Positions 6,538 through 27,586 of a stretch of 64,000 nucleotides of DNA are shown here, piece after piece. The position numbers and the translations under genes were made by a program. The notes under the pieces are model-generated. The model had not been told where the DNA came from. It did not search any database and saw nothing but the letters and a program-made list of their open reading frames with translations. This DNA is from Acidimicrobiales bacterium (lineage in GTDB: Bacteria; Actinomycetota; Acidimicrobiia; Acidimicrobiales; RAAP-2), in assembly GCA_017883135.1 (NCBI GenBank), contig JADGOE010000008.1, forward strand, positions 72 through 64,071, in the 5' to 3' direction. Position 1 is the stretch's first letter. Each line of letters starts with the position of its first letter.

Positions 6538-8538
6538 CTACCCGGAGCCGCCAGCGGGGAGTGCGGATCCTCCGAGCACGCATCGTGCCACCGCGACCCC
6601 GTTGGTAGGCACTTGGGCGTGACCGGTCAGGCAGGCGTCGAATGCCGCTGTCGCCACCGGTACCGACAGGGGAGCGTGGGCGACGTCCGACCACACCCAG
6701 GCGCCGTCCTGGTGGGTCGGCGCCGAGCCGAGCACCGACGAGAAGAACGCCACTCCGTAAGCGGTGCCGCGTGCTTGCTGGTAGGCGGGCAGCCGGGCAC
6801 TTTCGGGGACCACGACCGTGGTCACCCCCCAGTGGGCCATGGCGCGCCTCACCGCACCCAGGTTCGCGGCCGACATCGCGGGAGCGACCAGCAGGGGTAC
6901 CGAGGCGTCACGGAGCACTCCGAATCCGGCTCGATCCGCTCCGGCGCGGGCCACGGTTCCCGACGGTCCGCCTCCCCCGGCCATCAGGTAGTGCATCGTG
7001 TCGATCGCCTGCCAGGGGATCGACGCCTGCGAGTCGGCGGTGGCAAAGGGGTAGGCGAGCAGCACACGCCCGGGCGGCAGGTGGACCGCAGTGCTCTCGA
7101 ACCACTGCGGCACGCTGACCGGCTGCACGGTCAGGGGGATGTTCGGGGCCAGTACGGCGGCCACCGGTCCCAACGCCACGATCGCCACCGCCAGCGCTCC
7201 CAACCCTGCAACCCAACGTGTCGACGGCGGCAACCGCCCGGCCCGCCCGGTCTGTCCGCTAGTGGGCTCGGCCCGAGCCTGGCGGCGGGCGGCCCACGCA
7301 GCGATGCCGGACCTCGACCGGTCCACGATCACACCCAGCATCACCGCGGCGCACAGTCCGACCACGACTGCGAACCGCGACTGCACCACGTCTCGAACGA
7401 GCGGCAGGTGGTAGAGGAGGGCCCACGGTCCCCACCGGCCGGCACCGACGCGCATGCTGAGTGCGGCAGCCACCACGCCGAGGGCGCCGAACAACCAGAG
7501 CCGGCGGTCCCGTCTCCACCAGATGGTGCCGGCGACCAGCACCGCGACCACCCCTGGGCCCAGGTACGAGGGCGACGGCGTCACCGGCCCCCGGTAGCCA
7601 CCCAGGACGGGGGCCGCCTTCGCCAGCGCACTGGCGCCGATCGGGCCCCACCGACCGACGCCACTCCAGAAGTTTGCGACCGCGTTCCCGAGGTTGCCCG
7701 GGACGTTGGTCGACCACACCATCCCGCCTAGGTGGGCCGGTCCGGCCACGAAGAACCAGACCGGATAGGCCAGCAGTACCGCCGCCACCACCACCGCCAT
7801 GCCCAGGCCTCTGGCCGCGTGGGGCACCCTCGAACGGAGGTCGGCTGCGTCCCGAAGGGCGGCATAGGCCACCAGGAGCGCCATCGTCACAGCGCCGGCC
7901 ACCGCCGCGATCAGCAGCAGTTCGCTGCTGACGAAGAACTCGACGGTCACCAGTACGCCGAGGGCCACCCCCACCCGGGCCGGTCCCGCCCGCTGCCTGA
8001 CCAGTAACTCGTCGACGCACCCCGCCATCAGGGGGAGGAGCGCCGTGCACGCCAGGTTGAGCCACCCGAACGCCAGCTGCACGAGCACGAACGCGGAGAA
8101 CCCGTAACACAGCCCGCCCACGAAGGCCGCCGGCAGCCAGCGCACCCAGCGCTGCAGCAGCCAGAACATCGACAGGGCGGACAGCGCAGGGATCAAGGTG
8201 GCCGCCACGTTCACGCCGGTCACCGGCCCCAACAGCGAGGTGACCGGTGCCATGACCAGCGCGATCGCCGGCACGCTGGTATCGGCTAGCAGGTTGAAGC
8301 CGCTCGGGTGGAACTGCCAGGTGGAGAAGAGGAGGTTGTGGCCGTGGCCCAGTGCGAACGTGGACCACTCGAGGTCCCAGACCATCCGCCCGGCATCGGT
8401 GCAGCCGCACGTCATGACCGAGGAGGGGCCACCGCTCCAGACGTTCCACCAGACGACGACCGACGCCACCAGGTAGAGGCCGCCGGCCACAAGGTAGCGG
8501 GGGAGGCGGCCGGGCCTCCCACTCGACGGGGTCGTCAC
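6538..8538 (-). CDS. CxCxD-motif polytopic membrane protein, paralogue 1 (GT-C-like architecture, unassigned family)
   Basis: The real gene is the C-terminal 666 codons of the 929-aa ORF. A GTG at 8538 overlaps the TGA of the upstream paralogue (GTGA). Conserved blocks: WWNVW...MTCGCTDAG..W.LEW..FALGHGHN...FHPSGFNLLADTS...APVT..LGPV...GFSAF. C-terminal WGVTTVVVP...AWVW. Confidence 0.8.
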   Translation of the reverse strand: MTTPSSGRPGRLPRYLVAGGLYLVASVVVWWNVWSGGPSSVMTCGCTDAGRMVWDLEWSTFALGHGHNLLFSTWQFHPSGFNLLADTSVPAIALVMAPVTSLLGPVTGVNVAATLIPALSALSMFWLLQRWVRWLPAAFVGGLCYGFSAFVLVQLAFGWLNLACTALLPLMAGCVDELLVRQRAGPARVGVALGVLVTVEFFVSSELLLIAAVAGAVTMALLVAYAALRDAADLRSRVPHAARGLGMAVVVAAVLLAYPVWFFVAGPAHLGGMVWSTNVPGNLGNAVANFWSGVGRWGPIGASALAKAAPVLGGYRGPVTPSPSYLGPGVVAVLVAGTIWWRRDRRLWLFGALGVVAAALSMRVGAGRWGPWALLYHLPLVRDVVQSRFAVVVGLCAAVMLGVIVDRSRSGIAAWAARRQARAEPTSGQTGRAGRLPPSTRWVAGLGALAVAIVALGPVAAVLAPNIPLTVQPVSVPQWFESTAVHLPPGRVLLAYPFATADSQASIPWQAIDTMHYLMAGGGGPSGTVARAGADRAGFGVLRDASVPLLVAPAMSAANLGAVRRAMAHWGVTTVVVPESARLPAYQQARGTAYGVAFFSSVLGSAPTHQDGAWVWSDVAHAPLSVPVATAAFDACLTGHAQVPTNGVAVARCVLGGSALPAGGSG

Positions 8539-10499
8539 GCCTGGTGCAGCACGCACGCTGCCACCACCGCCCCCGAGCCGGCGTTGCTGTCGACGCCGGT
8601 GCAGGCCACGAACGCCGACGGGCTGATGGTGATCGACGGCCCGGCGGACCCCACGTGGTCCCAGACCCACGCGCTCGCCTGGTGGACCGGGGCCCGACCG
8701 AGGGCGGTGGTGAAGAGCCCGACCGCATAGGGGACACCTCGGCCGCGGTCGTAGGTCGGCAACCCCGGCTGGTCCGGTACCACCACCGTGGTCACCCCCC
8801 AACCGGCCAACGCCTGGCGAACGGCGTGGAGCTCGGCCGTCCCGGGCTGTGGGGGAGGTCCCAGGTGCAGCGTGGCCCGGGCCAGTACGGCGAACCCGGG
8901 GGCCTCCGGTCCGGCCCGCGACCGGGTGATCCCCGGGCCGCCGCCGCCCACCATCGAGAAGGTCATCCCTGCCACCGCCTGCCAGGCCATCGACGACTGG
9001 ATGCCACCGAGGGCGGTGGGGTAGGGCAGGACCACTTGACCGTTTCCGAGCCGGGGCGCCACCGAGGTGAACCATCGAGGCACCACTACGGTCCGGACCG
9101 TCATCGGGATGTTCGGCCACAGCGCTCCTGCCACCGGCACCAGTGCCAACCCGGCGGTGGCCACTCCGGCGAGCGCGGCGCCACGCGGACCGACGCGGGG
9201 CACCGCCGCGGCCCGGACGTGCCCGACGACCACGGCGAGCAGCACCGCCACACAGGTGTCGATGATGACCGTGAGGTTGACCGGCACCACGTTGTCCAAC
9301 AGCGGAAGGTGGGTGAAGAGGCGCCACGGAGCCCAGTAGCCGTCACCCACCCCGAGGGAGAGCACGGCAGCCAGCAGGCCGATCAGGCCGAAGCACCACA
9401 GCAGACGGTCGTGGCGCCAGACCGCCACACCGCCGACGACCACGACGAGCACTCCGATCCCGAGGTAGGAGAGGAGCGGGAGGGTCGGTCCCTGGTAGCC
9501 GCCGAACAGGTGCATGATGCCGGTCAGCGGTGCCCCGAAGAAGCCGTCGACGAACTGGGCCGGCGTGTTGGCCACGGCGCCGGGTGGCTCGTCGGGCCAG
9601 GCCCTGCCGACCAGGTGGGCCGGACCGGCGAAGAAGAACCAGAGCGGGTAGGCCAACAGCACCGCCGCCAACCCTCCCGCCACACACAGCCCAGGTAACG
9701 CCCGGCGGACCGTGGTCGAGGTGGCGCTCGGCCGGTGCGCGAGCGCCCGCGATCCCACCACGAGTGCCGTCATCGACGCGAACAGCGCCACGAGGAGCAG
9801 CACCTCGACGCTGATGAAGAACTCCACCGTCACCAGTGCGCCCAGGGCCGCTCCCACCACGAGGACGCGGTGTCGGTGGCGGACGAAGAGGTCATCGATG
9901 CAACCGATGATGAGGGGCACCGGTGCCAGCAACCCGAAGTTGGGATGGGCGAGGGCCAGGCTGACGACGACGAAGGGCGAGAAGCCGAAGAACAGTCCAC
10001 CGACGAAGGCGGCCGGGTCCCAGGCCACCCAGCGGCGGAGCAGCCAGAACATGGCCAGTGCGGAGAGAGGAGGCGACGCCACGTCGATGAGGTTCAGCGA
10101 GGCGACCGGGCCGAACAGCCAGGTGACCGGGGCGAACACGACCCCGAGCACCAGCGAATTGGGAGCCATGTTGATCCCGCGGGGCACCAGGAGCTTGGAG
10201 GAGTAGAAGGGGTTGAGCCCGTGGCTGAGCGCGTATGCGGGCCACTTGATCACCCAGATCGTCAGCGCCGCGTCGCCGCAGCCGCAGGTGGTGACCGTCC
10301 TCGGATGGGGCATCACGTGCCACCAGAGGATCGAGGACAGGACGAGGTACGCCGCGCCGGCCACCGCGTAGGGAAGCCATCGGCGCCCGGGCGCGTCGAC
10401 CGCGTCCGTCAAGTCCCCCGCTTCGAGGTCGGGGCCGTCGAGGTCGGCTGCCGGACCGGGCGCGCGCTCCTGGCTGGGCGGATGCGACTGCGGTGTCAT
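8535..10499 (-). CDS. CxCxD-motif polytopic membrane protein, paralogue 2
   Basis: In-frame ATG at 10499 (MTPQSHPP...). The longer 753-aa ORF N-terminus is Arg/Pro-rich and unlikely to be real. Motifs: TTCGCGDAALTIW, KWPAYALSHG, APVTWLFGPVASLN, GFSPF, MVGGGGP, GWGVTTVVVP, AWVW. Confidence 0.8.
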   Translation of the reverse strand: MTPQSHPPSQERAPGPAADLDGPDLEAGDLTDAVDAPGRRWLPYAVAGAAYLVLSSILWWHVMPHPRTVTTCGCGDAALTIWVIKWPAYALSHGLNPFYSSKLLVPRGINMAPNSLVLGVVFAPVTWLFGPVASLNLIDVASPPLSALAMFWLLRRWVAWDPAAFVGGLFFGFSPFVVVSLALAHPNFGLLAPVPLIIGCIDDLFVRHRHRVLVVGAALGALVTVEFFISVEVLLLVALFASMTALVVGSRALAHRPSATSTTVRRALPGLCVAGGLAAVLLAYPLWFFFAGPAHLVGRAWPDEPPGAVANTPAQFVDGFFGAPLTGIMHLFGGYQGPTLPLLSYLGIGVLVVVVGGVAVWRHDRLLWCFGLIGLLAAVLSLGVGDGYWAPWRLFTHLPLLDNVVPVNLTVIIDTCVAVLLAVVVGHVRAAAVPRVGPRGAALAGVATAGLALVPVAGALWPNIPMTVRTVVVPRWFTSVAPRLGNGQVVLPYPTALGGIQSSMAWQAVAGMTFSMVGGGGPGITRSRAGPEAPGFAVLARATLHLGPPPQPGTAELHAVRQALAGWGVTTVVVPDQPGLPTYDRGRGVPYAVGLFTTALGRAPVHQASAWVWDHVGSAGPSITISPSAFVACTGVDSNAGSGAVVAACVLHQA

Positions 10500-10651: not shown

Positions 10652-12631
10652 GTGACAGAGACCCCCGTTGTGATCGAGTCGCCGCCCGATGAGTTGTCGG
10701 ACGCCGATGTGGCGCCTGGCGGCGCTCGGTCGGCGTGGCAGGGGGCGGCACCGGCCGAGCGTTCGGGCCGCGGGCCGACCCGCCGGACCATCGCACTCCA
10801 CCTGGCCGTCTTCGGTGGGTTCGTGTTGGTGGGGGTGGTGCTGTGGTGGAACGTGTGGGTCACCGGCCATCCGACGACGACGCTGACCTGCCAGTGCGGT
10901 GACCCCAGCCAAGAGCTCTGGTTCCTGACGTGGACGCCGTGGGCCATCGTGCACGGCCACTCGCCGTTCCTCTCCAACGCCATCTTCGCCGGCCGGGGTG
11001 GCGCCAACATGATGGTCAACACCTCGTGGATGCTGCCGGCGGTCGTCATGGCTCCGATCACCTGGCTGTTCGGCCCGATCGCCTCGTTCAACGTGGCCGC
11101 CACGGTGGCACCGGCCGTTTCGGGGTGGTGCTTCTTCCTCGCGGCCCGACGTGTGACGACCTTCGTGCCCGCCCAGATCCTCGGTGCGCTGCTGTTCGGC
11201 TTCTCGCCGTTCGTGTTCCAGAACGATCCGTTCGGCCACCTCAATTTCGTCCTTCTCTTCTTCCCCCCGCTGGTCTTCATCCTTCTGCACGACCTCTTCG
11301 TCACCCACCGCCGTGCTCCCGTGCGCATCGGCGTGCTGCTGGCGGTGCTGGTGGTGGCGGAGTTCTTCACCAGCACCGAGCTGTTGGCCATGTGCACCCT
11401 GGTCACCGTGGGCACACTGGTGGCGGCCGCGGCGATGGCACCCCGCTCCGCCTGGGCCCAGCGGGCCCGCTTCCTCACCGCCTCGGCGCTGGCGGCCGGA
11501 ATCGCCCTGGTGGTACTGGCCTACCCGCTGTGGTTCACCGTGGCCGGGCCACGCCGGATCGTGGGCCTTCCGTGGACCAACTCCCCGAAACTGGGTATCA
11601 GCCCCTCGGCCATCGTCAACTCCGGGGTTCGGGTACACGCCTCGTCGCTCTTCGACCGGGTCGGGGGGTACTTCGGCGGGGTCGGCCCCAATGCAGGTCC
11701 GGTACACGTGCCGAGCCTGGTCTTCTTCGGCACGTTTCTGATCGGCTTCCTCCTGGTGTCGGTCGTCACCTGGTACCGGTCGCGCCTGGCCTGGGCCCTC
11801 CTCGTCGGCACCGTGGTCGCCTGGCTGCTCTCGTTCGGGACCACGATGGGCACCGAGGCCGCCCCACTTGCGATGCAGGTGCACCCGTGGTGGCTCCCGT
11901 GGCGCCTCCTCTCGCGCATCCCGTTGGTGGCCGACATCCTGCCGATCCGGCTCGGGGTGATGGTCACTTTCGGCGTCGCGATGCTGCTTGCCATCTCGCT
12001 CGACCGGTGGCGGACCATCGTCGGAGCGGCCCTCGACGACCGCGGCCCGGCGACCGCGGCTGGCGCGGCCGGGCACCGCCGGTCAAGGTTGATCACCACG
12101 GTGCTGGTCACCGCGGTGGGGATCGGCGTGCTGGTGCCGGTGGCCCTCGCCGAGCCCGTGCCGTTCACCGTGGTGCCTTCGACCCTGCCTGCCTGGTTCA
12201 CCTCCGACGCACAGCGACTGCCCGCTGGGACCGTCGTCTTGGTGCTCCCCTTCGCAGGACAGACCGCCATGGGTTGGCAGGCCCAGGCCGGTCTGACCTT
12301 CGCGCTTGCGGGGGGTTTCGCCGTCGTTCCCGACCCCGGAGGGCGTTCGGCCTTCGCGTCCCCACCCGCCGGAGCGATCGCGGTCCTCGACCGCCTGTCC
12401 GCCGATCCCCAGACCTTGGTGACGACACCACTCCCGTCCTCTGCCACCGATGTCGCTGAGGTGAGGAGCGCGATCGAGCGATGGCAGGTCGGAGTCACCG
12501 TGGTCACCCGGACGGGCTTGCAAGCGGACTACTCGGCCGGCTTCCTCTCCGCCGTGTACGGCCGTCCGCCCCGCTTCGTCGACGGCGTATGGGTCTGGAC
12601 CGGGCCTCCCGGACCGGCAGGGGCCGGCTGA
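10652..12631 (+). CDS. CxCxD-motif polytopic membrane protein, paralogue 3 (most divergent)
   Basis: 659 aa with GTG start, divergent from paralogue 2. Motifs: LTCQCGDPSQELW, WAIVHGHSPF, NTS, APITWLFGPIASFN, GFSPF. The C-terminus ends VWVW. Confidence 0.8.
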   Translation: MTETPVVIESPPDELSDADVAPGGARSAWQGAAPAERSGRGPTRRTIALHLAVFGGFVLVGVVLWWNVWVTGHPTTTLTCQCGDPSQELWFLTWTPWAIVHGHSPFLSNAIFAGRGGANMMVNTSWMLPAVVMAPITWLFGPIASFNVAATVAPAVSGWCFFLAARRVTTFVPAQILGALLFGFSPFVFQNDPFGHLNFVLLFFPPLVFILLHDLFVTHRRAPVRIGVLLAVLVVAEFFTSTELLAMCTLVTVGTLVAAAAMAPRSAWAQRARFLTASALAAGIALVVLAYPLWFTVAGPRRIVGLPWTNSPKLGISPSAIVNSGVRVHASSLFDRVGGYFGGVGPNAGPVHVPSLVFFGTFLIGFLLVSVVTWYRSRLAWALLVGTVVAWLLSFGTTMGTEAAPLAMQVHPWWLPWRLLSRIPLVADILPIRLGVMVTFGVAMLLAISLDRWRTIVGAALDDRGPATAAGAAGHRRSRLITTVLVTAVGIGVLVPVALAEPVPFTVVPSTLPAWFTSDAQRLPAGTVVLVLPFAGQTAMGWQAQAGLTFALAGGFAVVPDPGGRSAFASPPAGAIAVLDRLSADPQTLVTTPLPSSATDVAEVRSAIERWQVGVTVVTRTGLQADYSAGFLSAVYGRPPRFVDGVWVWTGPPGPAGAG

Positions 12632-12645
12632 TAGCGTCCACAGCC

Positions 12646-13146
12646 GTGAGCGGAGACGGTTCGCCGAGCCGTGGGATCGGGCCCGGTCGCCTCTCCGGGG
12701 CGTCCGTGGTCGTCGTGGGCGTCGTCGTGGCCACCGCGGCGATGGTCGGGCTGGGCGTCCAGGCGGTCAGCGGGGCCCGGACGGTGACCGCGCAACGAAG
12801 TGCGGGATCTGCTCGAGATGCTGCACTGGACGATGCGTTCTACCGCTGTATCGACGTGCAGACAGCCAGCTTGGTGTCGCCGGGCCAGCCGGTGGTCGTC
12901 GCCAACTCCAACCTGGCGGACTTCATCACCCTGGTGAAGGGGGCCGGCAGCTGGCTCACGATTGCCGAACCGCCGTCCCGCGCGTCTGGCGAGCTCTCGT
13001 TGCGCAACAACGTTGCTGGGCCCGGCACCTGTCGCGGCACCGTCGTGGTGGAACGCTACGCGGTGCCGCACCACGGGGTCAGGGTCGGTGTCGGCTCTGG
13101 GGCGAGCGTCCCGGGACACGGGCCACCACCGGCGACGCCCCTATGA
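12646..13146 (+). CDS. Small membrane-anchored/secreted hypothetical protein
   Basis: In-frame GTG at 12646, 15 nt after the paralogue-3 stop. One N-terminal hydrophobic segment (VVVVGVVVATAAMVGLGV) followed by a ~120-aa hydrophilic domain. Codon usage resembles its neighbours. Confidence 0.45.
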   Translation: MSGDGSPSRGIGPGRLSGASVVVVGVVVATAAMVGLGVQAVSGARTVTAQRSAGSARDAALDDAFYRCIDVQTASLVSPGQPVVVANSNLADFITLVKGAGSWLTIAEPPSRASGELSLRNNVAGPGTCRGTVVVERYAVPHHGVRVGVGSGASVPGHGPPPATPL

Positions 13147-13170: not shown

Positions 13171-14763
13171 ATGAGCACGGCTCCGGCGGCGATGGTGGCC
13201 ATGGTGGTGCTGTCGGCCTCGGGCCTGCTGCCCGTGCTCGTGCTGGTCGGTCTGCGCTGGATCACCATTCCCCTGGCCCCACTGGCCGGCGCCCTCGTCG
13301 CCGCGTTCGCGGCCACCGGCTTCGTGGCGTTCGGCGGGACATTTCTGGAATGGTTCGTCGCCCTGGCGGTGGCCGGAGCGTGCGCGATCGGTGCCGGCTG
13401 GGTGCTGCGCCCGGACCTGCGACCGCGGTGGCCGGTGTCGGGCCCGGGCCAGGTCCACCTGTCCGGCGGCCGGTATCGGGCGACGGGTGCCATCGGCATG
13501 GTCGCCGTCCTCGCCACCTGTGCATGGTGCCTGAGCGACCTCTCCTCGCCCACGGTCGGGTTCGATGCCCGGGCGGTGTGGCTGCAGAGGTCCGGGTGGT
13601 TCCTCCAATCCCACCATCAGCTCCTCGTCAACATGCGGGTGCCGTACATGGTGCTGATCCAGAGCGCGTACCCCTCGCTGGTCAGCGCTTCGGGAGCGGT
13701 GGCCTGGGGGGTCACCGGCAACCACTCCATGCGCCTGGGAGTGGTTGTGATCTCTCTGCTCAACGCGTGCGCCCTGGCCACCGCGGCCTTTGCAGTCGTC
13801 GAGGTCGGGCGCAACCTCGCCAGGCGCCTGTCGGTGCGCGAGGACCGGGCCGGGCCCGACCGCCCTCTGCCCACTGCACCCTTGGCGGTGGGGGTGGTCT
13901 CCGCCGTGCTCCTCGTCCTCATCTCCTTCGGGATCACCGGGCCGTTCATGACCAACGGCTACGCCGACCCGCTCTGGTCACTGGCGGCGGTCGGTGCCGT
14001 CGCCTACGGGCTGCAACTGCAGTCCGGGCGCTCCGAGCAGGGTGTGGCGGTGATCCTCGTGCTGGTCGCCGGGGCGTCGAAGAACGAGGGATTCGCGACC
14101 GCTGCCGCCCTCATCGTCCTGATCGCACTGCGTGGTCTGGTGGCCGCCCGGAGGGACGAGCCCCAACGCCCGTGGTGGCCGCCTGTCCTCGTGGGAGCCG
14201 GCGAGCTGGCTGCCATCGCTGTGTGGCCCGTGCTCATGGAGGTCCTCGGTGTCCGGGGTCGGTCCACCTCCTTGACCGCGGGTGCGGTGGTGTCCCGCTC
14301 CCGCGCCAGCTACGACGCGCTCTCCCCCTACCTGCACTCGCTGGTGTGGGCGGTACCGATTGCCGTCGTCGGCGGCCTGGTCCTCTCGGGGGTCCGCAGG
14401 CGGAGTGGGATCGCCAACGACTGGTGGGCCTGGGCCGGGCTGGCCGGCGGGCTGGTCGCCGTCGTGGGTGCACTCGCGACCGGCACCGGTGCCATCGGGC
14501 CCTGGCTGGTGACAACGGCGCACCGGGTCACCGAGTTCCCTGCCCTCTGCGGGTGGTGGATCGTGGCCACCTGGGCCGTCGTGGCCAGCGGTGCGTCGCC
14601 ATCCGAGGACCGGCGGCGGACGCCTGGCGAACCGCCCGATCGCGGGACCGGCACCAGGCCCCCGGACGCCGTTTCCGAAGGCCGGCCGGATAGTCACGAG
14701 CGGGGCCAGACGTCCCGAGCACTGCCGGTGGGACACAATGGTTGTGATGTCCGACCAGCGTGA
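13171..14763 (+). CDS. Polytopic integral membrane protein (unassigned; different family from the CxCxD paralogues)
   Basis: 530-aa ORF with ATG start. About a dozen hydrophobic segments. Sits within the same-strand gene string, and its 3' end overlaps the next gene's start. Confidence 0.7.
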   Translation: MSTAPAAMVAMVVLSASGLLPVLVLVGLRWITIPLAPLAGALVAAFAATGFVAFGGTFLEWFVALAVAGACAIGAGWVLRPDLRPRWPVSGPGQVHLSGGRYRATGAIGMVAVLATCAWCLSDLSSPTVGFDARAVWLQRSGWFLQSHHQLLVNMRVPYMVLIQSAYPSLVSASGAVAWGVTGNHSMRLGVVVISLLNACALATAAFAVVEVGRNLARRLSVREDRAGPDRPLPTAPLAVGVVSAVLLVLISFGITGPFMTNGYADPLWSLAAVGAVAYGLQLQSGRSEQGVAVILVLVAGASKNEGFATAAALIVLIALRGLVAARRDEPQRPWWPPVLVGAGELAAIAVWPVLMEVLGVRGRSTSLTAGAVVSRSRASYDALSPYLHSLVWAVPIAVVGGLVLSGVRRRSGIANDWWAWAGLAGGLVAVVGALATGTGAIGPWLVTTAHRVTEFPALCGWWIVATWAVVASGASPSEDRRRTPGEPPDRGTGTRPPDAVSEGRPDSHERGQTSRALPVGHNGCDVRPA

Positions 14764-16108
14764 GTCCGCCAGCCCGCTGGCCACGGTCCCGAGCAGCCAG
14801 GTGCCGCCGGCCGAGGTGTCCACGTCCGCGGCGACCCCCGGCACCGGGGGGAAGGCGTTCTCCCTCGGTAACCGGCCCGCGCTGACCGGCATCCGGGCCA
14901 TCGCACTCTCCTTCGTCCTGATCTTCCACTCCAACTTCAAGACCCTTCCGGGTGCGTGGGTCTCGCTGGGGATCTTCTTCGTGCTGAGCGGGTTCCTCAT
15001 CACCACGATGTTGGCCGGCGAGCACCAGCGGACGGGTCGGATCAGCCTGAGCAAGTTTTACTCGCGACGCGGCGTCCGGCTGCTTCCCCCGCTCCTGATC
15101 GCGGTGGCACTCCTCGGCCTCTACGCCACCTTCGTGCCGGTGGCCAACGCCGGCAACCGGATCTGGGGGGACTCGGCCGCCGCGGTGTTCTACCTGTCCG
15201 ACTACCGCTCCGCCTTCGGCCACGAGCCGTTCCTCGGGTTCATGTCCCAGTGCTGGTCGCTGGCGGTCGAGGAGCAGTTCTATCTGATTTGGGCGGCGCT
15301 GCTGCTGGTGGCGCTCAAGTTCGGCAATCGCAAGCTCGCCTACACCCTGACCTGCATCGGGATCGCGGTGTGCGCAGCCAACCGGATCTACCTGGTACTC
15401 GGTGCCCACCACTGGAACAGCTACGTCGCAGGGCGCGCCTACTACGCGTTCGACACCCGCGGCGACGCGCTCTTCCTTGGATGTCTGCTCGGGCTGATCG
15501 CCACCGGGGGCCACCTCGAGGGATGGAAGCCGTGGGCCAAACGGACCTTGAGCGTCCTGGCCGTCGCCTCGACCGCCAGCTTGATCTGGATCATCGCGAC
15601 GGTGGGCCTGGCCGCCAGGTCGCTGCCCCTGTGGTGGCTGCCGATCAGCGAGGTCGCCTCGGCCGTCATCATCGTCTACCTGATCATCCGACCCAAGGGA
15701 GTAGGTACCCGCGCGATGAGCTTCTCCGCGTTGGTGCTGGTGGGGAACATGTCGTACACCATCTACATCCTCCACTGGCCGGTCTACGTGGCCATCAGCC
15801 CGTTCACCGTGCGATGGTCGTACGGGGTCACCGAGGTGGTCCGGCTCGCCATCATCCTGCCGCTGGCCGCCCTCAGCTGGTACCTGATGGAGCAGCCGTT
15901 GATGCGATGGCGCCGGAGGGCGCTCGAGGTGGCGGCCGCCCCTGCGCCCATCGAGGGTCTTGGTGTCCCTGTGGTCCCGGCCGCCGTCGGCGACGCGCAT
16001 CCCGCGCCCGTCGAGGCGCCCGGCGCGGAGGAAGGGCCCCACCCGGGCGACCACGTTGTGCCGGACGGACGGCCGCTTGCCCGCCGGCCCACCCCGGCAT
16101 TCGAATGA
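14738..16108 (+). CDS. Acyltransferase family 3 membrane protein (short form)
   Basis: LTGIRAIALSFVLIFHSNF, GIFFVLSGFLITTML, WSLAVEEQFYLIW. In-frame ATGs at 14738 and 14747 overlap the upstream gene end. Paralogue of 3691-5178. Confidence 0.85.
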   Translation: MVVMSDQRESASPLATVPSSQVPPAEVSTSAATPGTGGKAFSLGNRPALTGIRAIALSFVLIFHSNFKTLPGAWVSLGIFFVLSGFLITTMLAGEHQRTGRISLSKFYSRRGVRLLPPLLIAVALLGLYATFVPVANAGNRIWGDSAAAVFYLSDYRSAFGHEPFLGFMSQCWSLAVEEQFYLIWAALLLVALKFGNRKLAYTLTCIGIAVCAANRIYLVLGAHHWNSYVAGRAYYAFDTRGDALFLGCLLGLIATGGHLEGWKPWAKRTLSVLAVASTASLIWIIATVGLAARSLPLWWLPISEVASAVIIVYLIIRPKGVGTRAMSFSALVLVGNMSYTIYILHWPVYVAISPFTVRWSYGVTEVVRLAIILPLAALSWYLMEQPLMRWRRRALEVAAAPAPIEGLGVPVVPAAVGDAHPAPVEAPGAEEGPHPGDHVVPDGRPLARRPTPAFE

Positions 16109-17988: not shown

Positions 17989-19913
17989 ACGAGGAGCCTG
18001 ACCGCCGGGCCGACCCGGGCCCGCGACACCGAGCAGCGCCTGCGTGGCGGGCGACCACGGTCGCTGGGCTCACCTACCTGCTCATGTCCCTCGGTCTGTG
18101 GTGGGGGATCTGGTCCACCCACCCGTCGACCACTACGACCTGCGGGTGCGGCGACGCCGCGCGATTCCTCTGGTTCTTCGAGTGGCCAGCCTTCGCCCTC
18201 ACCCACGGCCACAGCGTCCTCTACTCGCAGTGGCTGTTCCACCCTGGCGGCATCAACCTGCTCAACGACACCAGCGTGCTCGCCCTCGGGATCGCGCTCT
18301 CCCCGGTGACCCTGGTGGCAGGTCCAGTGGCAGCGATGAACGTGGGGCTGACCCTGGCACCGGTCCTCTCCGCGCTGGCCATGTTCGCGCTCCTGCGCCG
18401 CTGGGTGAGCTGGTCGCCCGCCGCCTTCGTCGGCGGCCTGGCCTACGGGTTCTCGCCGTTCCTGATCACCGAGCTCGCACTCAACCAGTTGAACATCGCG
18501 TTCTTGGCCATCCCTCCGCTGGTGGTCATGGCCCTCGACGAGCTGCTGGTGCGCCAGCGCCGCTCGCCCTGGCGCACCGGCGTCCTGCTGGCCGTGCTGG
18601 TGGTGGTCGAGTTCTTCGTCAGCACCGAGGTGCTCCTCGTCCTGTGCCTCTTCTCCCTCGTCGCCGTGGCGATGATGGTCGGGTTCACCTGCCTGCGCGA
18701 GGCCGGCGAGGTGGGACCCCGGGTCCGCCACGCCCTGCAGGCGTCGGCAACCGCCCTCGTCGTTGCGGCGGTGCTGCTCGCGTACCCGTTGTGGTTCCTA
18801 TTGCGCGGCCCCGCGCACCTTGCCGGCCCGATCTGGTCGAACGGCGCCATCGACCGGTACGGCAACACCGTGGCCAGCTTCTGGACCACCGGGGGGCTGG
18901 GCCAGCTCCGGGGGGAGATGCTCCGTTTCGGTGGCTACCAGGGCCCCACCCTCCCCGGCCTCGGCTATCTCGGGGCGGGTGTCGTTGTGGTGGCCGTGGT
19001 CGGGGCGTTGGTGTGGCGCCACGATCGTCGGCTCCTCCTGTTCGGGGGGCTCGGGTTGGTAGCGGCCGTACTGTCGCTCGGACCCGGCCACGGGTACTGG
19101 GTGCCGTGGCAGGTCGTCGAGAAGGTCCCGTTGGTCGGTGACATCGTGGAGGTGCGATTCTCCGTCGTGGTCACCCTCTGCGTGGCAGTCATGGCAGCGG
19201 TGGTGATCGACCGGACCCGCACCTGGCTGGCATCCCGCCGGAGCGAGGTCCGCGGACTCGCCGGCGACGTGGCGGCGGGGGCGCTGGCAGCGGCCATGCT
19301 GGTCCCCACCGCGGTTGCCCTCTGGCCCAACGTGCCGCTGACGGCGCGGGCGGTGGTGCTGCCCCGCTGGTACGCCGAGGTCGGGGCAGTCCTGCCCGCA
19401 GGAAGGGTGGTGCTCTCCTACCCGGCGCCCTTCTCCGGCCTGCAGTCCTCGCAGGCGTGGCAGGCGGTCGACCGGATGCGCTACGCCCAGGCCGGGGGAG
19501 GCGGGCCGGAGGGCCAGGCCGGAAGGGCGGGCACCGCCAGGGCCGGATTCGACGTGCTGTTCGGCGCATCCCTGGCCCTGGGACGCGCCCCGGGGCCCAG
19601 CCCGGCGAATCTGGCCGCGATCAGGCAGGCGCTGGCGGTGTGGGGGGTGACCACCGTGGTGATCCCCGACGAGCCGGCGGCGCCCCCCTACGACCAGGGA
19701 CGCAGTACTTCCTACGCCGTTGGACTGCTGACGGCTGTGATGGGACGGCGGCCCGCCTACGAACATGCAGCCTGGGTGTGGTCGTCAGTCGCGGTGAAGG
19801 GAACCCCGATCCCGATGACCGCGTCCGCCTTCGACGACTGCACCACCGGGGCGGTCGCCTCACTTCCGTCCCGTCAGGCCGTCCCCACCTGCGTGCTGGG
19901 ATACGCCGGATGA
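17985..19913 (+). CDS. CxCxD-motif polytopic membrane protein, paralogue 4
   Basis: 642 aa. The ATG at 17985 overlaps the upstream TGA (ATGA). Motifs: THPSTTTTCGCGDAARFLWFFEWPAFALTHGHSVLYS, NDTS, GFSPF, AGGGGP, VWGVTTVVIP, AWVW. Confidence 0.85.
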   Translation: MNEEPDRRADPGPRHRAAPAWRATTVAGLTYLLMSLGLWWGIWSTHPSTTTTCGCGDAARFLWFFEWPAFALTHGHSVLYSQWLFHPGGINLLNDTSVLALGIALSPVTLVAGPVAAMNVGLTLAPVLSALAMFALLRRWVSWSPAAFVGGLAYGFSPFLITELALNQLNIAFLAIPPLVVMALDELLVRQRRSPWRTGVLLAVLVVVEFFVSTEVLLVLCLFSLVAVAMMVGFTCLREAGEVGPRVRHALQASATALVVAAVLLAYPLWFLLRGPAHLAGPIWSNGAIDRYGNTVASFWTTGGLGQLRGEMLRFGGYQGPTLPGLGYLGAGVVVVAVVGALVWRHDRRLLLFGGLGLVAAVLSLGPGHGYWVPWQVVEKVPLVGDIVEVRFSVVVTLCVAVMAAVVIDRTRTWLASRRSEVRGLAGDVAAGALAAAMLVPTAVALWPNVPLTARAVVLPRWYAEVGAVLPAGRVVLSYPAPFSGLQSSQAWQAVDRMRYAQAGGGGPEGQAGRAGTARAGFDVLFGASLALGRAPGPSPANLAAIRQALAVWGVTTVVIPDEPAAPPYDQGRSTSYAVGLLTAVMGRRPAYEHAAWVWSSVAVKGTPIPMTASAFDDCTTGAVASLPSRQAVPTCVLGYAG

Positions 19914-20080: not shown

Positions 20081-20090
20081 ATGATCGTGA

Positions 20091-22290: not shown

Positions 22291-22320
22291 GCAGTCCACA
22301 TGGACTGCGCCCGTTAGGAT
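22291..22320 (+). promoter_or_regulatory. Perfect palindrome plus -10-like box upstream of vapB (probable autoregulatory operator with a leaderless promoter)
   Basis: gcagtcca-ca-tggactgc (22291-22308) has 8-bp perfect arms. TAGGAT (22315-22320) ends 7 nt before the ATG at 22328. Confidence 0.45.
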
Positions 22321-22327
22321 TGTCCCC

Positions 22328-22546: not shown

Positions 22547-22953
22547 TTCTTGTCGACACCGGACCGCTGATTGCGGTCCTCGACGCCGGCGATCGTCATC
22601 ATCGAGAATGTCTGGACCTGCTGGAGCGGGCCGTCGTCCCCCTCATCGTCCCGGCAACCGTTGTGGTCGAGGTCTGCCAGATGATCGAGCGGACCCGTGG
22701 TCCAGAGGCGGAAGCGGCGTTCCTCCGTGGGCTGGCTGCGGGTGAGATCATCCTCGAGGCGGTATCCCGTGCTGACCTGAGCCGGGCTGCCGAGCTCGTC
22801 GAGACTTACGCCGATCTCGGACTCGGCTTGGTCGATGCCTCCATCGTCGCCATTTCCGAACGTCTCGACATCACGAGCATCGCCACACTCGATCGTCGGG
22901 ACTTCCACGTCGTCCGCCCACGACACGTCGACGCGTTCACCCTGCTGCCTTGA
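22543..22953 (+). CDS. vapC: Type II toxin, PIN-domain ribonuclease VapC
   Basis: 136 aa. ILVDTGPLIA (Asp 1), VVVEVCQ (Glu), LVDASIVA (Asp) and TLDRRDF (Asp) are the four PIN acidic positions in the expected order. Confidence 0.9.
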   Translation: MILVDTGPLIAVLDAGDRHHRECLDLLERAVVPLIVPATVVVEVCQMIERTRGPEAEAAFLRGLAAGEIILEAVSRADLSRAAELVETYADLGLGLVDASIVAISERLDITSIATLDRRDFHVVRPRHVDAFTLLP

Positions 22954-23173
22954 TCCGAGCACCTTGACCTCCACCTGGGTAAAGGTGCTTCGTGACGCCG
23001 TTCGCTTGACCCCCAGCTCTGGAGAGGTGCATCGATTCCGCATTGGGGCGCATGGTCGCGGAAGCACAGTCGTTCGCCGTAGAGGGTGAGATATCGGTGG
23101 CGTCGTTGTCAACCTCCGTTCTCCCAGGTGACAACCACTTTGTCGCGTTTCGAAGGGCCGTTCGCCAGGGATC

Positions 23174-23210
23174 GTTCGCGAATGCAGGCCAACGAGGAAC
23201 GTCTCGTCGT
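23174..23210 (+). repeat. Right copy of the direct repeat flanking the vapBC cassette
   Basis: See 22060-22095. The two copies start 1114 nt apart, on the same strand. Confidence 0.7.
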
Positions 23211-23405
23211 CGGCGTACCGCTCTTGCTGATGGCATCCCAGGAACTGCTTCGCCGGAACTGTGTCGTCAGTAGCGGGTCCCTGCCCCGGCCGGCCACCGA
23301 TACGATGGCGCCCGTGGTAGAGCCCGCCGGCCAGCCTGCTCGGGGCAGGGCGATGCCCAGGGGGCCCCTCGTCTCCTCAGCGATGCGCGTCGAGGCGGTG
23401 CCGTC

Positions 23406-25436
23406 GTGACGACCACCGACCATGCCACGGTGGGACTCCTTGCCGCCGAGCCGACGACGGACACCCCGGTCGACACCTCGCTGCAGGCGCCCGGGCGCGA
23501 CGCCGGGCCGGTCACCGCCGGCCGGCTGCGAACGCTGCTGATCGCGGCGGCCGCCTACCTCGTGTGTTCGTTGATCGTGTGGTCCCATGTGTGGTGGAGC
23601 CACCCGACCTCGGTCACCACCTGCGGGTGTGGTGACACCTCCCTGTTCCTCTGGTACCTCGAGTGGCCGGCCTATGCGATCTCCCACGGCCTCGACCCGC
23701 TGTACTCGACGGCCATGTTCCATCCGGGCGGGGTCAACCTGCTGGCCAACACCAGCGAGCTGGCCATCGGCGTGGCGCTGGCCCCGGTCACCTGGCTGTT
23801 CGGTCCGGTGGCAAGCCTGAACGTGGCCCTCACCCTCAGCCCGGTCCTTTCCGGCCTGGCCATGTTCTGGCTGCTGGGCCGATGGGTGTCGTGGGCGCCC
23901 GCCGCGTTCGTCGGTGGCCTGCTCTACGGCTTCTCCCCGCTGGTGCTGGTCAGCCTGACCGACGCCCACCTCATGCTCGGGATGGCGGTGGTGCCTCCTC
24001 TGGTCGTCGCCTGCCTGGACGAGGCGCTGATCCGGCAACGCCGTCGACCGGTCGTGGTCGGGGTGGCCCTGGGACTGCTGGTCGCCCTGCAGTTCTTCAT
24101 CGGCACCGAGGTGCTCACCATCATGGTGATCACCGGAGCCATCGGCATTCTCCTCGTGGTCCTGTACGGGGCGCGGTACCCCGACGAGTTCCGGCGACGG
24201 GTCCGCCACGCCACCGTCGCCCTCGGCGCCGCCGGGGTCACCGCGGTGGTCCTGTTGGGCTATCCGGCGTGGTTCGCGCTGGCCGGTCCCGCCCACTACT
24301 CGGGGGTCGTCTGGCCCGGGTCGGCGATCGGCTTCGGCGGCACGGCGTTGAAGGGCTACCTGCTCCCCACGCCGGCCTCTCCCGGCTTCACCAATCTCGC
24401 CCACCAGCTGGGCGGGTACCAGGGCCTCACCCTGTCGGGCCAGTACCTCGGAGTCGGCCTCCTCGCGGTGCTGATCGGCGGCGTCATCGCCTGGCGCCAC
24501 GACCGGCGGCTCTGGCTGTTCGGCACCGTCGCTGTCGTCTCGGTGGTGCTCTCCCTGGGCATGGAGAACCACTACTGGGTGCCGTGGCGGGCGCTGGTGT
24601 GGCTCCCGCTGATCCAGAACATCATCCCGAGCCGGTTCGTCGCCATGACGTACCTGGCCGTGGCGGTGATGCTCGGGCTGATCATCGACCACACGTGGGA
24701 GGCCGCCAACCGATGGCGCACCAGGGCTGACCCCCGGCCGACCGGACGACCGGAAGGGAGTCGAGGCGGGTGGGCCGGTGCCGCTGCAGGGGTCGTCGTC
24801 GCGGGGATCGCCCTCGTCCCCACTGCGACCTACCTGGCAGCCAGCACCCCGATGACCACCCAACCGGTCATCGTCCCGACCTGGTTCCGGACCGTCGCCC
24901 CGCGGCTGGGCGGGCGCCAGGTGCTCCTCGTGCTGCCTGCGCCGTTCTCCTTCATCGAGAGCGCCCTCACCTGGCAGGCCGTCGACAGGATGCACTTCTC
25001 GATGGTGGGAGGCGGAGGGCCCGGCGGCATCCTCGCGCGGGCCGGCGCCGAACGCGAGGGCCAGGCCGTCATCGCAGATACCTCCTTCTCCTTCAACCCC
25101 CGCACCATCAGCACCGGCGACATCGCCGCGGTCCGACGGGCACTTGCCGGCTGGGGAGTCACCACGGCCGTCCTCCCCGACCAACCCGGCCTTCCGGCCT
25201 ATGAACGGGTCCGCTCCGTGCGTGCATCGGCGACACTGCTGACAGCCGCCATCGGCGAGCGGCCGATCCACCAGGCGGGCGCGTGGGTGTGGGCCGGGGT
25301 GCGCCATGCCGGCCCCCCGGTGCTCCTGAGCGCGGCCGCCTACGCGCAGTGCGCCGCCGACGTGTCGGCCGGCGGGTACGACTCGGTGGAAGGGGCGACC
25401 GCGTGCGTGCTCGCCGCCGCCCCGGGGGGACCGTGA
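23406..25436 (+). CDS. CxCxD-motif polytopic membrane protein, paralogue 5
   Basis: 676 aa with GTG start. Motifs: SHPTSVTTCGCGDTSLFLWYLEWPAYAISHGLDPLYS, ANTS, APVTWLFGPVASLN, GFSPL, MVGGGGP, GWGVTTAVLP, AWVW. Confidence 0.85.
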   Translation: MTTTDHATVGLLAAEPTTDTPVDTSLQAPGRDAGPVTAGRLRTLLIAAAAYLVCSLIVWSHVWWSHPTSVTTCGCGDTSLFLWYLEWPAYAISHGLDPLYSTAMFHPGGVNLLANTSELAIGVALAPVTWLFGPVASLNVALTLSPVLSGLAMFWLLGRWVSWAPAAFVGGLLYGFSPLVLVSLTDAHLMLGMAVVPPLVVACLDEALIRQRRRPVVVGVALGLLVALQFFIGTEVLTIMVITGAIGILLVVLYGARYPDEFRRRVRHATVALGAAGVTAVVLLGYPAWFALAGPAHYSGVVWPGSAIGFGGTALKGYLLPTPASPGFTNLAHQLGGYQGLTLSGQYLGVGLLAVLIGGVIAWRHDRRLWLFGTVAVVSVVLSLGMENHYWVPWRALVWLPLIQNIIPSRFVAMTYLAVAVMLGLIIDHTWEAANRWRTRADPRPTGRPEGSRGGWAGAAAGVVVAGIALVPTATYLAASTPMTTQPVIVPTWFRTVAPRLGGRQVLLVLPAPFSFIESALTWQAVDRMHFSMVGGGGPGGILARAGAEREGQAVIADTSFSFNPRTISTGDIAAVRRALAGWGVTTAVLPDQPGLPAYERVRSVRASATLLTAAIGERPIHQAGAWVWAGVRHAGPPVLLSAAAYAQCAADVSAGGYDSVEGATACVLAAAPGGP

Positions 25437-27586
25437 CGGTCGAGGTGGGGGGAGGCCGGCAACCGGCGCAGGTCGCCGGGTCCGCCGGTTCGCCACCCGG
25501 TGCCGTGCTCGACGTTCCCGGTCAGCGGGGCCTTCCCGACGGCTCGGACTGCGGTGACCCGGGTGGTGACGCGGTGACCATCGCGCGCCGGCCCGAGGTG
25601 GAGCGCTCCCGATGGCACGCCCGATTTGCACCGGGCGCCGCGGCGTTGGGCATCTACCTGGCCATCTCGGTGACGCTGTGGTGGGGGGCGTGGAGCACCC
25701 ACCCGACCAGTACCACGACGTGTGGCTGTGGTGACGCCGCCCGGTACCTGTGGTTCCTCGAGTGGCCGGCCTACGCCCTCACCCACGGCCACAGCGTGCT
25801 CTACTCGACGTGGTTGTACCACCCGAGCGGGCTCAACTTGTTGAACGACACCAGCGTGCTGGCGTTCGGAGTGGTCCTCGCCCCGGTCACCTGGCTGTTC
25901 GGGCCGGTCGCTTCCCTCAATGTGGCCTCGACCTTGATCCCAGCACTCTCGGCCCTGTCGATGTTCTGGCTGTTGCGTCGCTGGGTGAGCTGGGCACCGG
26001 CCGCCTTCGTCGGCGGCCTCCTCTACGGCTTCTCGCCGTACATCGTGAACGGGGTGGCAGCAGGCTGGCTGAATACCATGTTGGCGGTGCCGCCGCTGAT
26101 CGTGGCCTGTCTCGACGAGCTGTGCGTCCGTCGCCGCTACCGGCCGGCTGCGGTCGGTGCGGTGCTGGGTGGACTGATCACCCTGGAGTTCTTCATCAGC
26201 ACCGAACAGCTGGCGATCACTTTCGTCACCGCAGCGATCGGCCTGGTCGCCCTGGGGCTCTATGCGGTGGCCTTCCACCGCGACGAGCTCGTGCACCGGG
26301 CCTACCGGATCGTCGTCGGGTTCGGCGTGGCCGGCGGCGTGGCAGTCGCCCTGCTGGCCTATCCGCTCTGGTTCACGTTTGCCGGCCCGGCCCACCTGAG
26401 CGGCCTGGTCTGGCCGTCGGTCGCCCCGGGGTACTACGGCACCACCCTCGCCGAGTTCTTCCGTCTGACCACCCGGGCCGAGGTGGCCCAGACCACCGGG
26501 CTGCTGCACCGCTACGGCGGCTACCAGGGGATCGCGCTCCACCAGTCCGAGTACCTGGGCATCGCGCTGGTGATGGTGCTCATCGCCGGGGTCGTCCTGT
26601 GGCGCCGCGACCGGCGCCTGTGGCTCTTCGCCACGGTCGGGGTGGCTTCCATGGCGCTCTGCCTGGCTCCGTTCAGGTGGGTCAACGGCTTCTGGGTCCC
26701 GTGGCGGGTGCTCGGCCGTATCCCGGTGCTGCAGAACATCCTGCCGGTGAGGTTCGCCTCGATGACCTACCTGGCGACCGCGGTCATGCTCGGAATCATC
26801 GTCGATCACGCCCGGGCGTCGACGTTGCGGTGGGCCCGACGGTCCAATGCCGCCGACCGGAGCGATAGCGCCGACCGCGCTGACCGCGCTGCGGCCCGAC
26901 GGCCGGGGCCGCGTCTGGTTGCCGCTCTGGTGGCTGCGGCTGTAGCCGTGGTCGCCATCGGCCCCATCGCGTCCACCTATGCGGACAGGCTGCCCCTGGT
27001 GATGGAGCCGGTGGTGCTGCCCGAGTGGTTCGCGACCGTCGGTCCGCACCTCCCCCCGGGCCAGGTCGTCCTCACCTACCCGGCTGCGCTGGGCGGCATT
27101 CAGGCGTCGATGGCATACCAGGCGGTCGACGGGATGTCCTTCGCTCTGGTCGGCGGGGACGGGCCCACCGGCGTTCCCCAGCGGGCCGGCGCGCAACGCC
27201 CCGGCCTCACCGTGCTGGCCGGCACCACCTTCTCCCTCGATCCGGCGACCGCGTTCCTGCCGGCCTCCGTGGCCCAGGTGCGCCGGGCGCTGACCGGGTG
27301 GGGGACGACCCTGGTGGTCATACCGGACCAGCCCGGGCTGCCGGCGTACGACAAGGGGAACAACACGGCCTATGCCGTGGCACTGATGACTGCCACCCTG
27401 GGCGCCGCGCCCAGCTACCGGGCCCGGGCGTGGACATGGGCGGTCGGGGAGAGGCCGTCGGGACCTCTGACCATCACCCCGGATGCCTTCCGGTCCTGTG
27501 TCGGCACGGCGAACTTCCCGGTCGGACCGCCCCAGACCGTTCCGGACTGCGTGCTGACTGCGTCCACCGGCGGTCGAGCAGGCTGA
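25433..27586 (+). CDS. CxCxD-motif polytopic membrane protein, paralogue 6
   Basis: An in-frame GTG at 25433 overlaps the TGA of paralogue 5 (GTGA); a later start is possible. Motifs: THPTSTTTCGCGDAARYLWFLEWPAYALTHGHSVLYS, NDTS, APVTWLFGPVASLN, GFSPY, GWGTTLVVIP, AWTW. Confidence 0.8.
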   Translation: MTVEVGGGRQPAQVAGSAGSPPGAVLDVPGQRGLPDGSDCGDPGGDAVTIARRPEVERSRWHARFAPGAAALGIYLAISVTLWWGAWSTHPTSTTTCGCGDAARYLWFLEWPAYALTHGHSVLYSTWLYHPSGLNLLNDTSVLAFGVVLAPVTWLFGPVASLNVASTLIPALSALSMFWLLRRWVSWAPAAFVGGLLYGFSPYIVNGVAAGWLNTMLAVPPLIVACLDELCVRRRYRPAAVGAVLGGLITLEFFISTEQLAITFVTAAIGLVALGLYAVAFHRDELVHRAYRIVVGFGVAGGVAVALLAYPLWFTFAGPAHLSGLVWPSVAPGYYGTTLAEFFRLTTRAEVAQTTGLLHRYGGYQGIALHQSEYLGIALVMVLIAGVVLWRRDRRLWLFATVGVASMALCLAPFRWVNGFWVPWRVLGRIPVLQNILPVRFASMTYLATAVMLGIIVDHARASTLRWARRSNAADRSDSADRADRAAARRPGPRLVAALVAAAVAVVAIGPIASTYADRLPLVMEPVVLPEWFATVGPHLPPGQVVLTYPAALGGIQASMAYQAVDGMSFALVGGDGPTGVPQRAGAQRPGLTVLAGTTFSLDPATAFLPASVAQVRRALTGWGTTLVVIPDQPGLPAYDKGNNTAYAVALMTATLGAAPSYRARAWTWAVGERPSGPLTITPDAFRSCVGTANFPVGPPQTVPDCVLTASTGGRAG

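Follow-up and report, generated by a model that had tools for sequence, protein, structure and literature searches.

Six clustered paralogues in an Acidimicrobiales locus represent a candidate new sequence family of GT-C class A membrane glycosyltransferases

Introduction

Why does an Acidimicrobiales genome carry six neighboring genes for similar polytopic membrane proteins, and what might these proteins make? The question is raised by a 64,000-nucleotide stretch of contig JADGOE010000008.1 (assembly GCA_017883135.1, forward strand, positions 72 to 64,071; this whole stretch is referred to as the window and is numbered from its first nucleotide). An initial annotation made from the letters alone had noted there six open reading frames (ORFs) with a common T-C-x-C-x-D motif and a layout reminiscent of glycosyltransferase C (GT-C) enzymes. 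Enzymes of this kind make bacterial outer glycans, including the mycobacterial arabinan that is targeted by ethambutol. We know of no description of Acidimicrobiales envelope chemistry, and none was found in the literature; likewise, the literature yielded no account of the present family, of GT-C enzymes in Acidimicrobiia, or of arabinan genes there. New GT-C sequence families continue to be added one by one, with GT136 dating from 2024 (PMC11127046).

Here, we report a computational analysis of the six ORFs, their relatives, and their locus. We consider it probable that the six ORFs encode paralogous enzymes of a new sequence family in GT-C class A, acting in extracytoplasmic glycan assembly. 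This reading draws on the predicted fold, an invariant Asp at the position of the GT-C catalytic residue, and the conserved gene order in which the paralogues are embedded.

Results

Six intact ORFs are full-length paralogues

All six ORFs were present at the coordinates and on the strands first reported, none was interrupted, and they could be aligned from end to end with pairwise identities of 33–49%, which bears out the common architecture described in the initial annotation. Paralogue 1 (6538..8538, minus strand, 666 aa) and paralogue 2 (8535..10499, minus strand, 654 aa) overlap by 4 bp, as do paralogue 5 (23406..25436, plus strand, 676 aa) and paralogue 6 (25433..27586, plus strand, 717 aa). 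Between these pairs lie paralogue 3 (10652..12631, plus strand, 659 aa) and paralogue 4 (17985..19913, plus strand, 642 aa), and the start codon of the latter overlaps the stop codon of an upstream AftB homologue (17985–17988). Scored against a hidden Markov model of the family, copies 1 to 6 reached 853, 833, 588, 1090, 823, and 873 bits, respectively, values far beyond chance; paralogue 3 is the most divergent copy, with 33–37% identity to the others. Public gene calls matched the ORFs of paralogues 4 and 5 exactly. The exact sequences of paralogues 2 and 3 were absent from the protein collection, so public calls for them, if any, start elsewhere. As read from the sequence, the start codons of the six ORFs are plausible.

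The C-x-C-x-D core was found in every copy: as CGCTD in paralogue 1 (8395–8409, minus strand), CGCGD in paralogue 2 (10272–10286, minus strand), CQCGD in paralogue 3 (10889–10903, plus strand), and CGCGD in paralogues 4 (18141–18155, plus strand; residues C53, C55, and D57), 5 (23622–23636, plus strand), and 6 (25721–25735, plus strand). An alignment of the six copies (A1) also displayed the other sequence blocks listed earlier, together with the degeneracies noted in them, namely WW.VW, EW(P/S/T)..A(L/I)..G(H/L), P.G.N(L/M), (N/D)TS, AP(V/I)T.L.GP, GFS(P/A), GGGGP, WGVTTVV.P, and a terminal W.W. Copy 2 carries PNS in place of (N/D)TS, and small deviations were seen in copy 5 (WS for WW) and copy 4 (SPVT).

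The family is large and matches no named sequence family

Searches retrieved more than 1,045 close homologues, every one of them labeled hypothetical or bearing an evidently automatic label. A search of 1.84 billion cluster representatives with the A1 profile retrieved 8,334 proteins at E ≤ 1e-3; tightening the threshold to 1e-10 and 1e-30 left 4,533 and 2,176, respectively. At the last threshold, the family comprises about 2,200 clusters at 50% identity. The named relatives and all 68 retrieved genome loci belonged to metagenome-assembled genomes (MAGs) of uncultured Acidimicrobiales or Acidimicrobiaceae, a few of them labeled "Actinomycetes," and the isolate names of relatives referred to peat, bog, and palsa sites. 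A more distant branch of the family takes in a Frankiaceae MAG.

Pfam scans of each paralogue, a check that the initial annotation had proposed, and NCBIfam scans gave no match at the cut-off. The best Pfam scores were 16.5 bits for DUF2079 (cut-off 28.2), 11.7 bits for STT3 (PF02516, in paralogue 5 only; gathering score 24.5), and 9.3 bits for PTPS_related (cut-off 26.4), and neither PMT nor PMT_2 matched any of the six. In a Pfam scan of a 50-member family alignment, all signals were below threshold: STT3 in 27/50 (best E 1.2e-5), YfhO in 10/50, and TgpA_N, PTPS_related, and DUF2079 weakly in 4–5 members each. Seventeen more distant members likewise gave only sub-threshold Pfam and NCBIfam matches, and a PDB sequence-profile search with the family returned none. 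The AftB model of NCBIfam (NF041481) did not match the six paralogues; it is the neighboring protein, memB, that matches AftB. Descent of the family as a divergent AftB was rejected by hhalign, which gave a probability of 0.3% for the family (A2) against the neighboring AftB-like family (A4).

These searches, together with the oligosaccharyltransferase (OST) motif counts given below, were uniformly negative and agree with the earlier remark that the proteins could be placed in no characterized family. Absence from Pfam, NCBIfam, and the PDB sequences suggests a new sequence family that is unassigned in CAZy. Its signature motifs are T-T-C-G-C-G-D, HPxGxNLL(D/N)(D/N)TS, FFxSTE, GPAHLxGxxW, GGYQG, WQA, and GGGGP.

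The modeled fold is that of GT-C class A

The structure of paralogue 4 was modeled with AlphaFold2 from a 50-sequence alignment, giving a mean predicted local distance difference test score (pLDDT) of 86 and a predicted TM-score of 0.88. When this model was compared with the PDB by Foldseek, 18 matches were obtained at E ≤ 0.001, and all 18 were GT-C class A enzymes, in line with the glycosyltransferase layout first proposed. The matches included AglB (7e9s, E 2.4e-6), yeast and human STT3 (7oci, E 5.8e-6; 8b6l, E 7.5e-5), PglB (3rce, E 1.4e-5), DPY19 (7zlh, E 2.0e-5), ArnT (5ezm, E 3.5e-5), AftA (8if8, E 1.0e-4), and AftD (6w98), the last with a TM-score of 0.52. The next match beyond these was Pmt4 (9i5k, E 5e-3), and class B enzymes were far weaker (PimE, E 0.026; ALG3, E 0.09). 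The TM-scores of 0.41–0.52 are typical of separate families inside GT-C class A, and on the evidence of the model we regard the fold class of the family as settled.

The model contains 11 long transmembrane helices followed by an alpha/beta C-terminal domain of about 195 aa, and its long external loop 4 includes a low-confidence stretch (pLDDT <50) at residues 285–290. The C-terminal domain modeled alone reached a pLDDT of 87.8. Compared with PDB folds, it found no significant match, the best being the AglB-S2 C-terminal domain (E 0.36).

For the topology, the model helices were mapped on an alignment of 313 full-length members, and Lys plus Arg residues were counted in each loop. On average, the five predicted cytoplasmic loops contained 18–45 such residues per 100 aa and the five external loops 0–5; external loop 1, a segment of about 70 aa that carries C-x-C-x-D, contained 1.4. 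This distribution indicated that the N terminus lies inside and that loop 1 and the C-terminal domain lie outside, so the motif loop is placed outside the membrane, as the GT-C proposal demanded. When the six paralogues are compared with one another, conservation peaks in external loop 1 (53%), and external loop 4 (37%) ranks with the least conserved regions, a pattern that fits a common donor chemistry with different acceptors.

An invariant Asp and a Cys pair that is kept or lost as a unit

The C-x-C-x-D motif was retained in 118/118 N-complete close homologues outside the source genome and in 308/354 N-complete members of the wider family, so its conservation extends well past the genome in which it was noticed. 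Its description as invariant, however, held for the Asp only, which was present in 354/354; both Cys residues were missing from 46 of these proteins. No member had a single Cys. On a neighbor-joining tree from which the motif columns had been excluded, Fitch parsimony required at least seven independent switches between both Cys and neither, on a rough tree and a biased sample.

In the paralogue 4 model, a short strand (residues 50–52) runs into C53-G-C55-G, after which D57 opens the helix 57–74 that follows transmembrane helix 1. In every GT-C class A enzyme, an Asp essential for catalysis occupies the tip of juxtamembrane helix 1 (PMC12041299). The location of D57 at this tip, together with its invariance, matches the canonical position, and we infer from the model that D57 is the catalytic Asp of the family. 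Further polar residues were kept in both the Cys-bearing and the Cys-less clades, namely N91, T109, R139, E215, R391, and W492-Q493, in addition to D57; of these, D57, N91, T109, E215, and R391 face outside by the topology deduced above. By analogy with R221 and R372 of AftB (PMC12041299), R391 may bind phosphate, and E215 may supply another acidic group to the active site; both assignments are inference only.

The initial annotation had proposed that the two Cys residues form a disulfide or bind a metal next to the Asp. A role for C53, C55, and D57 as a metal site (Zn, Cu, or Fe), or for the pair as an on/off redox switch, would accord with the strict co-presence or co-absence of the two Cys, with their location 2 and 4 residues ahead of the putative catalytic residue, and with the general knowledge that Cys-x-Cys motifs can be redox active. 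Yet the 46 Cys-less members hold A/S, A/V, V/W, I/Y, or G/G at these positions, none of them metal ligands, and keep the Asp and the rest of the site. The loss of the pair with non-ligand replacements while the Asp is kept indicates that the pair is accessory and not part of the core reaction. An essential metal site is thus unlikely, and a metal or redox function of the pair in the Cys-bearing clade appears doubtful, if still worth considering. The disulfide half of the earlier suggestion is the likelier one: as judged from the pattern of residues, the simplest explanation is that C53 and C55 most probably form a local disulfide that rigidifies the turn on which the Asp is presented. To our knowledge, a Cys-x-Cys pair preceding the Asp has been described in no GT-C family.

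The C-terminal domain holds another pair of Cys residues, C619/C636 as numbered in paralogue 4 (window about 19839–19892), which has equivalents in copies 1, 2, 5, and 6; paralogue 3 lacks the C-terminal tail that holds it. Across the 313 members, both Cys were present in 233, neither in 70, and one in 10. Such a co-varying pair fits an oxidizing compartment outside the membrane.

The paralogues are fixed members of a conserved locus

The six copies within 21 kb had been taken to suggest diversification of a surface glycan. A local diversification was not borne out. A syntenic locus of about 30 kb is conserved in many Acidimicrobiales MAGs, and the gene order orfC-AT3-AT3-paralogue 1-paralogue 2-(paralogue 3)-AT3-memA-AftB-like-paralogue 4-paralogue 5-paralogue 6-AT3 recurs in many of the 68 loci. 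Each paralogue of the window has its own orthologue in these loci, about 55–72% identical (50–65% for paralogue 1). At least two family copies within about 22 kb were present in 54/68 related loci, most often three, and four loci had six. Only the position of paralogue 3 varied: comparison of related loci L003, L006, and L027 with the window, L004, and L023 placed it after paralogue 2 in some genomes and after paralogue 4 in others, with the remaining order kept. Orthologues in the same order across genomes mean that the paralogues are old and fixed, and a recent local amplification of six copies was thereby ruled out. From the sequence comparison, the six copies and their neighbors look like a fixed multi-enzyme assembly line.

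The upstream edge of the locus is formed by orfC (3..1481, plus strand), a conserved, unassigned membrane protein gene that is possibly cut by the window start. Pfam, NCBIfam, a PDB profile search, and hhalign against both GT-C families gave nothing for orfC, its sole hint being a very weak match to oligosaccharide repeat-unit polymerases (E 0.18). It is followed by two syntenic genes of the AT3 acyltransferase family, AT3a (1482..3722, minus strand), which also encodes an SGNH domain (Acyl_transf_3, 1e-28; SGNH, 1e-5), and AT3b (3691..5178, minus strand; Acyl_transf_3, 5e-23). After paralogue 3 comes a small conserved ORF (12589..13146, plus strand; public call, 185 aa) that has no family assignment and in many syntenic loci stands ahead of memA. 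The memA gene (13171..14763, plus strand; 530 aa), a conserved member of the locus, encodes a polytopic membrane protein with an invariant T-x-G-F-D-A-R-x-x-W block at residues 128–137; it had no Pfam, NCBIfam, or PDB-profile match and no hhalign similarity to the family or to AftB-like GT-C enzymes, and it may be a further transferase or a polymerase. Next come AT3c (14738..16108, plus strand; 456 aa by the public call; Acyl_transf_3, 1e-22) and memB (see below). AT3d (27638..29668, plus strand; Acyl_transf_3, 8.5e-22; SGNH, 1.8e-11) marks the downstream edge, and this edge, an AT3 gene followed by MarR, MFS, and acyl-CoA dehydrogenase genes, is common to the window and another genome. Related genomes carry up to four or five AT3 genes. 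The four AT3 genes of the window, two of them fused to SGNH domains, imply heavy or varied O-acylation of the product.

Two stretches, 5232–6407 and 19914–23405, appear from sequence comparison to be insertions into the conserved locus. They contain a Fic gene (5232–6407, plus strand), a second Fic gene (20543–21817, minus strand), and a PIN/VapC-like gene (22543–22953, plus strand), all absent from the syntenic loci, many of which have paralogue 5 or 3 immediately after paralogue 4. The G+C content is about 70% over the window and lower (0.667) in 20001–24000.

An AftB homologue accompanies the family

The memB gene (16105..17988, plus strand; 627 aa by the public call, analyzed from 16174) lies directly upstream of paralogue 4 in most syntenic loci. 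Its product, a full-length homologue of mycobacterial AftB, the terminal beta-(1->2)-arabinofuranosyltransferase, matched AftB (PDB 9dlf) over residues 15–595 with an E value of 5.5e-66, keeps the catalytic DD motif of AftB as D-E-D, carries a precomputed match to Pfam PF26371 (AftB_C), and scored 241 bits against NF041481, under the equivalog cut-off of 1050. It is therefore predicted from sequence to be a GT-C arabinofuranosyltransferase-like enzyme, and its homologues are widespread in Acidimicrobiales MAGs (792 matches). Two distant family members also have polysaccharide-related neighbors. One (L071; contig_5281, 5.56 Mb) lies near a 1,545-aa AftD-like GT-C protein, a PMT_2-like protein, a GT4, and an SGNH protein. 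The other (L072; Frankiaceae MAG JAENVS010000034.1) belongs to a polysaccharide locus of the ABC-transporter type, among genes for GT2, GT4, methyltransferase, and sulfotransferase proteins, and follows a gene for an unassigned 621-aa protein. In mycobacteria, several GT-C enzymes work in series on one polymer (PMC11127046, PMC12041299).

From this context, the locus most likely builds and acylates an extracytoplasmic polysaccharide stepwise at the external face of the cell membrane, from polyprenyl-phosphate sugars. Mycobacterial arabinan is itself succinylated by an AT3-family enzyme; the arabinan analogy for the locus product is suggestive, and the polysaccharide may be arabinan-like or contain pentofuranose.

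Alternatively, the family might act like the GtrC, YfhO, or GT136 enzymes of three-component systems, adding single side-chain sugars to a finished wall polymer (teichoic-acid-like, lipoglycan, or peptidoglycan) and building no backbone. There is GT-C precedent in such systems (PMC11127046), the weak YfhO, PTPS_related, and DUF2079 signals point to them, AT3 acyltransferases typically modify after polymerization, and the Frankiaceae member lies in an ABC-transporter-type polysaccharide locus. However, neither a GT2 polyprenyl-phosphate sugar synthase nor a flippase of the GtrA or MATE type was found in the locus or next to it, a set of three to six fixed paralogues together with an AftB homologue would exceed what side-chain decoration usually requires, and the orthologues are stable across genomes, not serotype-variable. 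We thus consider a pure decoration role unlikely.

A second group of glycan genes was observed at 40814–49865 of the window. It comprises a GT4 gene (40814–42205), two methyltransferase genes (42199–42987; 44542–45396, minus strand), a GT2-methyltransferase fusion (45374–46825), and a GT1-like gene (48636–49865, minus strand), and it is interrupted by a HipA toxin gene (47031–48545). A tRNA scan of the window found no tRNA genes.

Likeness to and difference from known GT-C enzymes

The family resembles GT-C class A enzymes (AglB/PglB/STT3, ArnT, PMT, DPY19, AftA, AftB, AftD, and Emb) in fold (Foldseek E 2e-6 to 3e-4), in its N-in topology with a large first external loop and an invariant Asp at the tip of juxtamembrane helix 1, in its long external loop 4, and in an outside C-terminal domain after the last transmembrane helix. 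It differs from them in having no significant sequence similarity to any and in its own signature motifs. With AftB (GT89; PDB 9dlf/9dlh; PMC12041299), it shares 11 transmembrane helices, a C-terminal alpha/beta domain, and the Asp at juxtamembrane helix 1; AftB, in contrast, has a DD motif and no Cys pair, and it was not among the Foldseek matches listed. YfhO (PF09586), DUF2079 (PF09852), and PTPS_related (PF10131) are likewise polytopic bacterial envelope proteins of GT-C type, but their weak matches covered part of the transmembrane core, none reached the gathering score, and their motifs differ.

OSTs (STT3/AglB/PglB; GT66, PF02516) required closer comparison. If the paralogues were OST-like offshoots, they would transfer a preassembled glycan from polyprenyl-diphosphate to protein or another acceptor, with D57 and E215 holding a divalent cation. 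AglB, STT3, and PglB were the best structural matches, the sub-threshold STT3 signal recurred in about half of the family alignment, and the C-terminal domain, which lies outside in both, found its nearest, not significant, counterpart in AglB-S2. Furthermore, an invariant W-Q-A block lies about 40 residues past the last transmembrane helix, which we take to be similar to the position of WWDYG in OSTs. Nevertheless, WWD[YWF]G was present in 0/388 family sequences and any loop-1 DxD in 3/313, which excluded true OST membership, and no window paralogue reached the STT3 cut-off. OSTs have 13 transmembrane helices, whereas the family model has 11. AftD, ArnT, and AftA, which use monophosphate donors, matched about equally well, and six fixed paralogues beside an AftB homologue and four AT3 genes, a polysaccharide-like context, resemble stepwise polysaccharide assembly. 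An OST-like activity is, in our estimate, quite improbable. That the proteins are GT-C-shaped scaffolds, transporters, or pseudoenzymes of envelope machinery, as the moderate TM-scores might allow, is least credible of all, because the canonical catalytic position holds an Asp without exception, the outer-face polar residues are invariant, and external loop 1 is conserved more than any other region, all of them features that pseudoenzymes usually lose.

Discussion

The six ORFs are thus best read as paralogous GT-C class A enzymes of extracytoplasmic glycan assembly. Under this reading, each enzyme would take a polyprenyl-phosphate-linked sugar from the outer leaflet and pass it to a growing cell-envelope glycan. 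D57 would act as base or nucleophile, E215 in external loop 3, N91, and T109 would assist sugar binding, and R391 at the outer end of transmembrane helix 10 would hold the phosphate; the acceptor would be chosen by external loop 4, which is variable, together with the C-terminal domain. The two Cys residues, as an obligate pair, would form a Cys-x-Cys disulfide that stiffens the Asp turn and would be dispensable for the core chemistry. The paralogues would differ in the linkage that each makes, a further and possibly terminal residue would come from the AftB homologue, and O-acylation of the extracytoplasmic polysaccharide would fall to the four AT3 enzymes. Two to three further unassigned membrane proteins would work with them.

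Several observations weigh against this proposal. The TM-scores to known GT-C enzymes reach just 0.41–0.52, and the C-terminal domain, being without a significant structural match, throws no light on acceptor recognition. A Cys-x-Cys disulfide is a strained and rarely seen arrangement. As far as the edges of the locus are visible, no gene for donor synthesis was found within about 10 kb: neither a polyprenyl-phosphate sugar synthase nor a UbiA-type DPPR synthase, DprE1/E2, or a flippase of the GtrA type was seen in the window or in the annotated neighborhoods L069, L070, and L074, a search that did not extend upstream of orfC. Finally, the arabinan analogy is based only on AftB and AftD homologues.

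A bolder version would have uncultured peat and soil Acidimicrobiales make a mycobacteria-like, acylated arabinan or other pentofuranose polymer outside the cell membrane. For this polymer, an unrelated GT-C family would replace Emb, AftA, and AftC, save for capping of the AftB type, and the Cys disulfide would be a redox gate. We regard this combination as a long shot; if true, glycan synthesis would be coupled to the oxidation state of the envelope by a redox gate beside the catalytic Asp.

The fold class is already known, and what is new here is the sequence family, its motif, and the multi-paralogue locus. Nothing established is overturned, and the main surprises are the AftB link outside Mycobacteriales and a pair of Cys residues that appear and disappear together. 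The latter poses a small, testable question about how a GT-C catalytic loop is held. The signature motifs enable the definition of a Pfam or CAZy family and the annotation of thousands of "hypothetical proteins" in what is a large, unnamed family without Pfam, NCBIfam, or PDB assignment. This family dominates a conserved locus in the Acidimicrobiales, an abundant and understudied soil and peat lineage, and the AftB homologue and four AT3 genes beside it suggest that arabinan-type extracytoplasmic assembly, carried out with different enzymes, may exist outside Mycobacteriales.

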